Notes: generated by a model not told the origin, from the letters alone. Shown: positions 5,508-40,877, counted from the stretch's first letter. The stretch is DNA of 42,065 nucleotides from Escherichia coli (GCF_003334255.1 NZ_QOWU01000050.1), one strand, 5' to 3'. Numbers and translations: made by a program.

Positions 5508-6248
5508 TTAGAACATTACCTTATGACCGTACTGCTCAAGAATGCCTTTCACGCGTTCCATGGTCTCTTTCTTCGGTGGTTTAACACCGTCGAGTTTGTA
5601 CTCTTCACCCATTGCCACCCATTTGTGTTTGCCCAGCTCGTGGTAGGGGAGAAGCTCGATTTTCTCAACGTTGCCCATATCACGGGTAAATTCACCGAGG
5701 CGATGCGCTGAATCGTCATCGTCAGACCAGCCTGGGACAACAACGTAGCGGATCCACACCTTCACATTTTTGTTCGCCAGATATTTAGCGAACTCCAGCG
5801 TGCGGTGGTTGGAAACTCCAACCAGATTTTGGTGGATCTCGTCGTTCATCTGTTTGAGATCGAGCATTACCAGGTCGGTTACTTCCAGCAGTTCATCAAT
5901 CACCGGATCGTAACGACGAACAAAACCGTTGGTGTCCAGACAGGTATGAATGCCTTCTTTTTTGCAGGCGCGGAACCAGTCACGAACAAACTCAGCTTGC
6001 AGGATTGCTTCACCGCCGGATGCGGTAACGCCGCCGCCGGAAGCGTTCATAAAGTGGCGATAGGTCACCACTTCCTTCATCAAATCTTCAACGGTAACTT
6101 CTTTACCGCCATGCGTGTCCCAGGTGTCGCGGTTATGACAATACAGGCAGCGCATCAGGCAGCCCTGGAAAAAGGTGATAAAGCGAATACCTGGGCCGTC
6201 TACGGTTCCACAGGATTCAAAGGAGTGAATGCGACCAATAACTGACAT
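5508..6248 (-). CDS. pflA: pyruvate formate-lyase activating enzyme (radical SAM)
   Basis: 246-aa ORF starting [20 protein letters not shown] with the CX3CX2C radical-SAM cluster motif ([10 protein letters not shown]); ATG at 6248 has a ggaga Shine-Dalgarno. The 9-codon upstream extension in the ORF track is rejected. Confidence 0.93.
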
Positions 6249-38817: not shown

Positions 38818-39465
38818 ATGAACTATCGTATTATTCCGGTCACCGCATTCTCCCAGAACTGTTCATTAATCTGGTGTGAACAAACCCGTCAGGCCGCACT
38901 GGTCGATCCTGGCGGCGATGCGGAAAAAATCAAACAGGAAGTTGATGACAGCGGCCTGACACTGATGCAGATCCTGCTGACGCATGGTCATCTGGACCAC
39001 GTTGGCGCAGCGGCGGAACTGGCGCAACATTACGGCGTGCCGGTTTTCGGCCCGGAAAAAGAAGATGAGTTCTGGCTGCAAGGCTTGCCTGCGCAAAGTC
39101 GTATGTTTGGTCTGGAAGAGTGCCAGCCGCTGACGCCAGATCGTTGGCTGAACGAAGGCGATACCATCAGCATAGGGAATGTGACTTTACAGGTGTTACA
39201 TTGCCCTGGGCATACGCCGGGTCATGTCGTGTTTTTTGATGATCGGGCAAAGCTGCTGATTTCTGGCGATGTTATTTTCAAAGGCGGAGTAGGGCGCAGT
39301 GACTTCCCGCGTGGCGATCATAATCAACTGATTTCTTCAATCAAAGATAAATTGCTGCCACTGGGGGATGACGTGATATTTATTCCGGGTCACGGACCAT
39401 TATCCACACTTGGTTATGAACGCCTGCATAATCCCTTCCTGCAAGACGAAATGCCCGTCTGGTAA
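38818..39465 (+). CDS. gloC: metallo-beta-lactamase-fold hydroxyacylglutathione hydrolase GloC (YcbL)
   Basis: 215-aa ORF with MBL motif [10 protein letters not shown]. Confidence 0.9.
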
Positions 39466-39478
39466 GGCACATAAAAAA

Positions 39479-39503
39479 GCCCGCTTTTAATGCGGGCCTG
39501 GAT
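39479..39503. terminator. hairpin gcccgc-ttttaat-gcgggc; with flanking A/T runs it reads as an intrinsic terminator on the minus strand (aspC transcript) and as a hairpin after gloC on the plus strand
   Basis: Perfect 6-bp GC stem; a tttttt tract follows the stem on the minus strand, an aaaaaa tract precedes it on the plus strand. Confidence 0.55.
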
Positions 39504-39528
39504 TTCTGGCAAAGTGCGCTTTGTTTAT

Positions 39529-39626
39529 GCCGGATGCGGCACGAGCGCCTTATCCGGCCTACAAAATCGTGCAAATTCAAAATATTGCAGGGGACGCGTA
39601 GGCCTGATAAGCGTAGCGCATCAGGC
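39529..39626. repeat. BIME: two inverted REP (repetitive extragenic palindromic) units
   Basis: gccggatgcggcacgagcgccttatccggcctac (39529-39562) and inverted copy gtaggcctgataagcgtagcgcatcaggc (39598-39626) match the REP consensus family as I recall it; located between convergent gloC and aspC. Confidence 0.75.
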
Positions 39627-39650
39627 AATGTTGCGTTTGTCATCAGTCTC

Positions 39651-39682
39651 AGCCCGCTTTTCAGCGGGCTTCATTGTTTTTA
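39651..39682. terminator. hairpin agcccgc-ttttca-gcgggct followed by tcattgttttt (plus-strand sense), immediately beyond the aspC stop
   Basis: Perfect 7-bp stem; T-tract on the plus strand only, so it may terminate read-through from gloC or stabilise the aspC 3' end. Confidence 0.45.
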
Positions 39683-39686
39683 ATGC

Positions 39687-40877
39687 TTACAGCACTGCCA
39701 CAATCGCTTCGCACAGCGGAGCCATGTTATCTGGTGTCATCCCGGCCACATTTACGCGACCAGAAGCAACCGCATATACGCCAAACTCTTCGCGCAGACG
39801 CAGCACTTGTTCTTTTGTCAGGCCACTGAAGGAGAACATGCCGTTCTGTTTGATGATAAAGCTGAAGTCGCGGTTTGCGCCTTTTTCCTGCAGCGTATTG
39901 ACGAACAACTGACGCATACGCTGAATACGCTGGCGCATATCAGTCAGCTCTTGTTCCCAAATCGCACGTAACGCATCGTTGCTCAGGATGGTGGCAACAA
40001 CAGAAGCGCCGTGTGCTGGTGGGTTAGAGTAGTTAGCGCGAATCGCCGCTTTCATTTGGCTGAATGCGCGATCAACGGTTTCACTGTCGGCAGCAACCAG
40101 AGTACAAGCGCCAACACGCTCGTTGTACAGGCCAAAGTTTTTAGAGTAGGAACTGGCAACAATCAGCTCTTTATGCATAGCCGCGAAAGCGCGCAGTCCT
40201 TCAGCATCTTCTTCCAGACCACGGGCAAAACCCTGGTAAGCGAAGTCAAACAGCGGTAACCAGCCTTTCTCAACGGAGAGTTGTGCCAGTGTTTGCCATT
40301 GTTCCAGCGTAGGGTCGATACCGGTTGGGTTATGGCAGCAGCCATGGAACAGCACTACGTCGCCAGCCTGAGCTTCATTCAGGCTGTTAATCAGTGCATC
40401 GAAGTCAAGAGTGTGATTTTCCGCATCATAATAAGCGTATTCACGAACTTCCAGACCTGCAGAGTTAAAGACGCTCTTATGGTTCGGCCAGCTTGGGTTG
40501 CTCACCCACACACGCTTAACGCTGGTATTTTTTGCCAAGAAATCGGCAGCCACGCGTAGTGCGCCAGTGCCCCCCGGAGTCTGTGCCGTGCGAGCACGTT
40601 TGTCATTGATCAGGGCGCTACCTTTACCAAACAGCAGTTCCTGAGTGCAGCGACCAAATTCAGGGATGCCGTCAATGCCGAGGTAATTTTTGGTGGTTTC
40701 ATTTTCGAGCAGATACTGTTCAGCCTTTTTCACGCTGGTCAGTACCGGGGTTTTGCCCGTCTCATCTTTATAGACACCAATCCCGAGGTTAATTTTGCCG
40801 GGACGTTCATCGGCACGAAACAGATCGGCCAGGCCCAGAATCGGGTCGGCAGGAGCGGCGGTAATGTTCTCAAACAT
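39687..40877 (-). CDS. aspC: aspartate aminotransferase
   Basis: 396-aa ORF ([46 protein letters not shown]...), PLP-lysine context [14 protein letters not shown]. Confidence 0.97.

Follow-up and report, generated by a model that had tools for sequence, protein, structure and literature searches.

A probable BIME-1 insertion flanked by two copies of a terminator stem-loop between the convergent genes gloC and aspC of Escherichia coli

Introduction

The convergent genes gloC (ycbL) and aspC of Escherichia coli are separated by a spacer in which two perfect GC-rich hairpins surround a pair of inverted REP units, each hairpin looking like the terminator of the more distant gene. An earlier note on this DNA, made from the sequence alone, had drawn attention to this odd layout and raised the question addressed here: is the spacer a functional unit that both transcripts have to traverse before they end, or does its arrangement have another origin?

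REP doublets of the BIME-1 type are defined in the literature by one Y and one Z1 unit separated by a conserved long linker that often contains an IHF site, and their presence or absence as whole units among strains is a described behavior of the family. The mechanism by which REP doublets insert in vivo is still called unestablished in recent work. Here, we analyzed a stretch of 42,065 nt of E. coli DNA (GCF_003334255.1, NZ_QOWU01000050.1), hereafter referred to as the window, together with orthologous spacers, other BIME-1 sites and published 3'-end maps. All positions are those of the window unless stated otherwise.

Results and discussion

Layout of the gloC-aspC spacer

Positions 39466 to 39686 correspond exactly to the 221-bp spacer between the convergent stop codons of gloC and aspC (Table 1). 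Open reading frames, REP positions and a terminator scan bore out the two GC hairpins and two inverted REP units reported in the earlier note, as well as its remark that the T-tract of each gene-proximal hairpin lies on the opposite strand, each strand's canonical hairpin and U-tract being found beyond the BIME. The hairpin that it had placed at 39479-39503 is present, with an end coordinate that overshoots by approximately 5 nt.

The stem of this first hairpin pairs GCCCGC (39479-39484) with GCGGGC (39492-39497) around a 7-nt loop and is preceded by A6. On the - strand, terminator scan and folding revealed an 8-pair stem (-14.1 kcal/mol) followed by U6; hairpin 1 is a canonical intrinsic terminator on that strand only. 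Hairpin 2 pairs AGCCCGCT (39651-39658) with AGCGGGCT (39663-39670) around the loop TTTC, is followed by TCATTGTTTTT, and was scored by the terminator scan on the + strand only. Neither hairpin combines an A-tract upstream with a T-tract downstream of one GC stem-loop, as hairpin 1 has the A-tract only and hairpin 2 the T-tract only. Overall, the scan returned 4 terminator-like sites versus 0.9 expected by chance. Folding, one of the checks proposed in the earlier note, confirmed that its folding is far more favorable than that of shuffled sequence (z = -4.4 and -4.8), and one long imperfect palindrome is a possible fold of the whole spacer. No repeat feature is annotated in this spacer in the K-12 RefSeq record.

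Table 1. Features of the gloC-aspC spacer, in window coordinates.
Feature	Position	Strand	Basis
gloC (ycbL) stop codon	39463-39465	+	ORF 38818-39465; gloC annotation in K-12 and other genomes
A6 tract, U6 of the - strand terminator	39473-39478	-	sequence and terminator scan; same A-tract precedes the empty-site hairpin
Hairpin 1, left stem-loop copy AGCCCGCTTTTAATGCGGGCC	39478-39498		direct repeat with 39651-39671
BIME-1, 152 bp	39499-39650	+	near-constant unit length and identity to other copies; missing from empty sites
A motif	39499-39528	+	part of BIME-1
Y REP	39529-39562	+	part of BIME-1; tail to tail with Z1
L linker, 35 nt	39563-39597	+	part of BIME-1, between Y and Z1
L-linker region matching Rfam RF02751 (ES036/CssrF)	39563-39605	+	53 bits versus a gathering score of 37.6
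IHF-consensus match ATTCAAAATATTG, 1 mismatch	39575-39587	+	candidate site by sequence matching; 1 found versus 0.16 expected
Z1 REP, inverted relative to Y	39598-39626	+	part of BIME-1
B motif	39627-39650	+	part of BIME-1
Dominant aspC mRNA 3' end (K-12 984478/984479)	39646-39647	-	Term-seq, SEnd-seq, SMRT-Cappable-seq
Hairpin 2, right intact stem-loop copy AGCCCGCTTTTCAGCGGGCTT	39651-39671		repeat, terminator scan and empty-site comparison
T-rich tail TCATTGTTTTT of the + strand terminator	39671-39681	+	sequence and terminator scan
aspC stop codon	39687-39689	-	ORF 39687-40877; annotation

The spacer contains a BIME-1 element

The segment between the two hairpins is a BIME-1 (RIB/RIP type), a REP doublet or REPIN of an already known kind. 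It has the same Y, L and Z1 composition, order and orientation as the BIME-1, RIB and RIP elements of E. coli, its Y and Z1 units being inverted tail to tail and aligning with BIME-1 copies elsewhere. The conserved long L linker, which is reported to carry an IHF site in BIME-1, contains a candidate IHF site by sequence matching. Like known copies, the element is a single extragenic unit in the ~140-150-bp class with conserved outer motifs, located at the 3' ends of transcription units, and it is present or absent as a whole among strains. The element itself is thus no different from those already described; the duplicated host stem-loop that flanks it (see below) is the extra feature here. 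The earlier note had invoked the binding of both gyrase and IHF by BIMEs: IHF is indeed the partner reported for BIME-1, whereas gyrase binding and preference are documented for BIME-2, not BIME-1.

We compared the gloC-aspC copy with copies at 16 other sites, taken from metagenome contigs and E. coli genomes. Unit length ranged from 149 to 154 bp, with 152 bp at most sites, and the 152-bp unit shared 88-100% identity with BIME-1 copies, or 80-100% when BIME-1-like copies are counted, at other loci. The 30-nt A motif and the 24-nt B motif have the consensus sequences CAGATTGTTGACAAAGTGCGCGTTGTTCAT and AGTTTTGCGTTTGTCATCAGTCTC, respectively, and their outer ends are inverted repeats of each other. 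As in the terminal inverted repeats of MITEs, the start of A (CAGATTGTTGACAAAG) agrees with the reverse complement of the end of B (GAGACTGATGACAAAC) at 12 of 16 positions compared by eye.

Several minor observations concern the element and its relatives. The Rfam 'sRNA' family RF02751 (ES036/CssrF) appears to correspond to the BIME-1 L linker, a repeated DNA, and not to a dedicated sRNA gene. In E. coli TW08637 (locus L005, 1803-3081), the Z1 REP of the gloC-aspC BIME is interrupted by IS621, a 1279-bp REP-targeting element of the IS110 family, at a point equivalent to 39601/39602, between GTAG and GCCTGATAAG. A survey of 100 kb of K-12 for more BIME-1 copies found one atypical Y-L-Z2 unit only, in the yaaX-yaaA spacer (L133, ~5590-5670). 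This unit combines a BIME-1-type linker with a long Z REP and lacks A and B motifs; a terminator-like hairpin of its own comes after it, and it has the appearance of an unusual chimera between the two BIME families. The linker pattern had no match in viral contigs. Two candidates were set aside: REP-like matches at 6015-6160 are not REPs and lie within coding sequence, and a metagenome contig (L115, 1137-1259; 1.9x coverage), in which the Y REP of the gloC-aspC BIME is fused to a left flank of unrelated sequence, probably reflects chimeric assembly at the repeat rather than a genuine rearrangement.

Spacers lacking the element contain one bidirectional terminator

The orthologous locus was retrieved from 80 species-representative genomes, in which the spacer is short in 74 and has a median of ~57 bp over the whole set. 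Under the strict test applied, a GC stem-loop had to have 4 or more A among the 8 nt that precede it and 4 or more T among the 8 nt that follow. The test was passed by 69 of the 74 short spacers, which belong to other Enterobacteriaceae species, and three of the five failures visibly have the same structure. Short spacers also occur within E. coli. In O157:H7, UPEC 536 and AR_0077, spacers of 49-50 bp reading AAAAAAGCCCGCTTT(T/C)...GCGGGCTTC match the window spacer at its two ends, with a gap of 173 bp in between, and consist of a single hairpin that A6 precedes and a T-rich tail follows. Since short one-hairpin spacers are found in at least 69 of 74 other Enterobacteriaceae species and at the empty sites of E. 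coli, the ancestral Enterobacteriaceae spacer is, judging from this comparison, a region of ~50 bp with one bidirectional intrinsic terminator made of an A-tract, a GC stem-loop and a T-tract.

The left junction of the filled site, a 63-nt sequence that occurs once per genome, was detected in 3186 of 5426 complete E. coli genomes; ~41% of complete genomes are without the element. We also noted that in E. coli 401656 (L004, 516-541) a 26-bp tandem duplication of the last aspC codons and stop (CGCTTACAGCACTGCCACAATCGC..) extends the spacer to 75 bp.

Origin of the two hairpins

The comparison with orthologous spacers lacking the BIME, also proposed in the earlier note, revealed the insertion and duplication, given the single bidirectional terminator found there. 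The long spacer amounts to the ancestral terminator with two additions, the 152-bp BIME-1 and another copy of the ~21-nt stem-loop; the A-tract has stayed with the left copy and the T-tract with the right one. Both hairpins begin with an exact 11-bp direct repeat (AGCCCGCTTTT, at 39478 and 39651), and the full stem-loop repeat gave an alignment score of 15, compared to a mean of 5.9 and a 99th percentile of 10 in a cross-locus null. Furthermore, the left copy in Escherichia albertii, AGCCCGCTTTCGAAGCGAGCT, is a near-complete copy of the hairpin found in an empty Escherichia locus (L007), and therefore the whole stem-loop was duplicated, more than the 11 bp that remain identical in the window.

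The sequence comparison shows that a 152-bp BIME-1 inserted at the hairpin of the bidirectional terminator in an Escherichia ancestor, and that the ~21-nt stem-loop was duplicated in direct orientation, with one copy on each side of the element. This left hairpin 1, with its A-tract, canonical for aspC (- strand) only, and hairpin 2, with its T-tract, canonical for gloC (+ strand) only. The opposite-strand T-tracts exist because the left copy inherited the A-tract and the right copy the T-tract: the odd placement is, on this sequence evidence, the scar of an insertion and no designed pair of terminators, and the A6 upstream of hairpin 1 is a remnant of the ancestral bidirectional terminator.

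Hairpin 1 could conceivably have arisen without target duplication, brought from a donor locus by way of similar GCCCGC terminators or produced by extension of a palindrome through template switching at the BIME. GCCCGC/GCGGGC stems are frequent in terminators, and the spacer can be folded as a single long imperfect palindrome. However, the loops of the two hairpins are in direct and not reverse-complement orientation, which rules out palindrome extension, and the 63-nt left junction is single-copy in each genome, which rules out a donor locus. Moreover, 8 of 17 independent BIME-1 sites have a duplicated hairpin that is specific to the locus and that matches the corresponding empty site wherever one is known. 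We thus regard an origin of hairpin 1 other than target duplication as very improbable.

The same terminator has been hit elsewhere. In Pseudocitrobacter faecalis and Pseudocitrobacter vendiensis, a BIME-1-like element lies in the opposite orientation at the gloC-aspC terminator, with a duplicated GGCCGC..GCGGCC hairpin, and the site is empty in a Pseudocitrobacter MAG. The Pseudocitrobacter insertion is an independent parallel event.

Age and reversibility of the insertion

The copies of E. coli, an E69-like lineage and E. albertii have the same junctions and the same orientation and have in common a linker variant (CAAAATATTG), which is rare, and a Y-loop variant (CGAGCGCC), both found at the gloC-aspC locus only. 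These sequence features suggest either that one old insertion took place or that the allele was transferred. Identity of the coding flanks to the window is 86.5-89% for E. albertii and 92-94% for E69, while identity of the element between lineages (94-98%) is above that of coding flanks (87-94%). This higher conservation of the element may reflect constraint, gene conversion or transfer alike.

The empty allele of O157:H7 has flanks 99.3% identical to those of the window and equals the left flank of the window joined to its right hairpin copy. The simplest reading of this sequence is that the direct repeats later recombined in a precise deletion; for the empty E. coli alleles, the alternative would be recombination that exchanged a short tract (allelic replacement). 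The flanking direct repeats would allow a precise 173-bp loss that restores the original terminator. Bachellier et al. reportedly described 'excisions of a whole BIME-1' in 1997.

Transcript ends and read-through in K-12

In K-12 MG1655, a T replaces the G found at 39494 in the window, breaking the stem of hairpin 1 and changing its - strand folding energy from -14.1 to -7.9 kcal/mol. An exact match to the window across 39466-39528, i.e. a perfect hairpin 1, is present in 2652 of the 3186 filled E. coli genomes; the 534 that differ include K-12-derived laboratory strains. Since K-12 hairpin 1 is a minority allele, the K-12 3'-end maps used here come from an atypical allele. All 3'-end data discussed below are for K-12 and its defective hairpin 1, not for the allele of the window (K-12 coordinate = window coordinate + 944832).

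The 3' end of aspC was mapped to 984479 by Term-seq and by SMRT-Cappable-seq (transcript start 985744, 53 reads), and to 984478 by SEnd-seq according to the overlap table reproduced in Harris et al. 2026. It lies 4-5 nt past hairpin 2, and no U-tract follows on the - strand. The 3' end of gloC was placed at 984506 by SMRT-Cappable-seq and, in the same reproduced table, by SEnd-seq; this corresponds to 39674, 4 nt into the T-rich tail of hairpin 2. Therefore, the gloC mRNA carries hairpin 1 and the BIME in its 3' UTR, and the mature aspC mRNA, which ends at the near hairpin, is without the BIME. The earlier note had proposed that each transcript crosses the BIME to its own terminator, a view that it considered refuted should both transcripts end at the proximal hairpins. 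In K-12, its proposal held for gloC, which ends at the distal hairpin 2, and failed for the stable end of aspC.

Hairpin 2 is the 29-nt overlap (984478-984506) of a SEnd-seq bidirectional terminator, entry 69 of the 306 overlapping bidirectional terminators of Ju et al. 2019 as tabulated in the Harris et al. 2026 preprint, where it appears in log and stationary phase. As in the rest of that class, a single hairpin is bracketed by the RNA 3' ends of the two strands, in these published data for K-12 and not for the strain of the window. It departs from the class as tabulated there in that the A-tract of the - strand has moved 173 bp away, onto the second hairpin copy.

The Term-seq study also reported Rho-dependent regions on both sides of the spacer in K-12. 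For 984273(-), inside antisense gloC, coverage upstream and downstream in 800-nt intervals was 102/21 without bicyclomycin (BCM) and 114/105 with BCM; downstream coverage thus rose from ~21% of upstream coverage to ~92% when Rho was inhibited. For 984537(+), the corresponding values were 173/17 and 226/69. These observations suggest that much of the - strand (aspC) transcription crosses the whole spacer in K-12 and is then stopped by Rho, although part of the BCM effect could come from antisense transcripts that start elsewhere. The earlier note may therefore be right on aspC transcription while wrong on the stable end of aspC RNA. REPs have been linked to Rho-dependent attenuation, and no 3' ends at the two REP hairpins are present in the curated K-12 Term-seq list, which counts against simple exonucleolytic trimming of aspC RNA, so that an endonucleolytic step would be needed. 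We also note that, in the published bicyclomycin data, the Rho-dependent regions lie just inside each facing gene (39441 on the - strand, 39705 on the + strand), as a back-up to the spacer terminators on both strands.

In K-12, gloC transcripts read through hairpin 1 and the BIME before their canonical termination at hairpin 2. According to our preferred reading, RNA polymerase on the - strand would mostly pass hairpin 2 and then stop at hairpin 1 and its U6 or, in K-12, be stopped by Rho inside antisense gloC, after which cutting or trimming would bring the aspC RNA back to the stable hairpin 2. In that case, hairpin 1 would serve as a fail-safe, protecting gloC against antisense read-through of the more highly expressed aspC (expression base mean of 19890 versus 4900 for gloC).

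Two other accounts of the transcript ends have to be weighed against this reading. Hairpin 2 might still be a true bidirectional terminator at which pausing together with head-on and trailing polymerase collisions ends transcription, the aspC end at 39646/7 being real termination without a U-tract and little polymerase entering the BIME. A collision model has been proposed for exactly the class of overlapping bidirectional terminators in which the SEnd-seq list, as tabulated by Harris et al. 2026, places this site in both growth phases; the agreement of three methods on one aspC 3' end and the lack of listed REP-associated Term-seq ends fit it as well. However, the rise in - strand coverage beyond the spacer under Rho inhibition indicates that most polymerases pass hairpin 2 in K-12, the model holds such terminators to be Rho-independent, and gloC, expressed approximately 4-fold below aspC, would supply few collision partners. 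We consider collision-driven termination a serious but less likely explanation.

The account favored in the earlier note, in which two terminators around the BIME form a functional unit, both mRNAs cross the BIME to end at the far hairpin, and the BIME stabilizes both and binds gyrase and IHF, appears unlikely. It agrees with the sequence layout and with the 3' end of gloC, and convergent gene pairs with REPs show raised expression genome-wide. Yet the stable aspC 3' end lies at the near hairpin in three data sets, insertion with duplication accounts for the layout, the element is missing from ~41% of E. coli genomes, hairpin 1 has decayed in K-12 and in E. albertii, and it is BIME-2, not BIME-1, for which a gyrase preference has been reported. 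By comparison, the explanation that joins BIME-1 insertion in an Escherichia ancestor, the preferred reading of the K-12 transcripts and the reversibility of the insertion has, in our judgment, a good probability of being correct as a whole.

The observation that raised the question is thus real and the layout largely ordinary, hairpin 2 already being in published K-12 terminator lists. What appeared to be a puzzle of design becomes one of history, with one terminator, one insertion and one duplicated hairpin. The locus offers a natural series of three alleles, namely empty, filled with a perfect hairpin 1, and filled with the broken hairpin 1 of K-12, which lets the effect of a REP doublet on two convergent mRNAs be tested.

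Hairpin-length duplications at other BIME-1 sites

The gloC-aspC locus itself is of modest interest, and the recurrence of hairpin-length duplications is the part worth following. At 17 distinct BIME-1 sites, the 40 nt to the left of the unit were aligned with the 40 nt to its right, and flanks from different loci provided the cross-locus null. Eight of the 17 independent sites scored 13-22, compared to a null maximum of 14. We attribute this maximum to loci L093 and L111, which share a right flank. At all eight sites, the repeat adjoins both ends of the unit, forms a GC stem-loop and is in direct orientation as judged from matching loops. Its length tracks that of the hairpin over a range of 18-22 nt, from 18 nt at rlmC-artJ to 22 nt at tkt. 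A ninth site, barA-gudD, resembles a decayed copy; of the remaining sites, several have a hairpin adjoining one end only or none, and about half of all sites are without duplication.

An empty allele showing a single hairpin was found for three sites. At ysgA-metE, E. coli is empty with the single hairpin AAAAGACCGGGTGGTATTACCACCCGGTTTGG, and a contig from a related Escherichia is filled, with the hairpin on both sides and a difference of 173 bp. Two other candidate pairs were discarded: the Nissle spacer at katE-chbG is unrelated, and L116 is an accessory locus with no empty allele. We also observed that L093 and L111 have the right half of the BIME-1 and the right flank (AAAAAAAGACCCGCAGAGCGGG) in common and different left halves; in L093, the duplicated segment is apparently ~33 nt including the A-tract, and the B motif is truncated.

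We advance, as a tentative proposal that has more chance of failing than of holding, that BIME-1 integration takes place at the base of GC-rich terminator stem-loops and copies the stem-loop in full, the length of the duplication being set by structure (18-22 nt) and not by a fixed stagger, and that this is not already described in older BIME papers. No description of a hairpin-length duplication flanking BIME-1 was found in the BIME literature covered, which does not extend to the older primary BIME papers, and we make no claim of novelty. A plausible mechanism would be that an extruded hairpin is cut at its two feet and the gap then repaired. If true, a structure-set duplication would imply that an extruded hairpin or cruciform is cleaved on both sides of its base, an event not predicted by an IS200/IS605-style RAYT model. 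It would also explain the location of BIME-1 at 3' ends, its precise loss, and the tandem amplification of BIME and hairpin at tkt. A recurrent hairpin-length target duplication would be a concrete, testable constraint on the mechanism of REP doublet insertion.

Neither of two familiar insertion patterns fits these sites. Members of the IS200/IS605 family, whose 'peel and paste' model has been proposed for RAYT/TnpA(REP), have ends recognized as hairpins and leave no flanking target repeats; RAYT likewise cleaves BIMEs in vitro, but BIME-1 is adjoined at both ends by 18-22-nt direct repeats of hairpin length at 8 of the 17 sites. Classical MITEs generate target duplications of fixed length, whereas here the length tracks the hairpin and about half of the sites have none. 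The closest published parallel that we found is YPAL/RU-2 of Yersinia, compared here through a secondary summary (Delihas 2008 on De Gregorio 2006). As summarized there, these ~168-bp repeats with internal inverted repeats produce target duplications of 3-26 bp at targets that span or adjoin dyad symmetry; they differ from BIME-1 in sequence family and genus. REP dimers in host palindromes of other phyla (Di Nocera 2013) are likewise REP doublets within small GC palindromes, but there the palindrome is split and its arms flank the doublet, whereas here a complete stem-loop lies on each side.

At the tkt locus, the number of tandem copies of a 174-bp unit made of BIME and hairpin varies from one to three among strains. 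In L126 (2641-3135), the spacer between tkt and a prohibitin-family gene contains three tandem BIME-1 and hairpin units with a period of 174 bp, bounded by four copies of GGGCCGCGAAAGCGGCCC, with T7 after the last copy only. In other E. coli genomes the tkt spacer is shorter by 174 bp or by ~348-361 bp, which would fit spacers with two units and a single unit, respectively.
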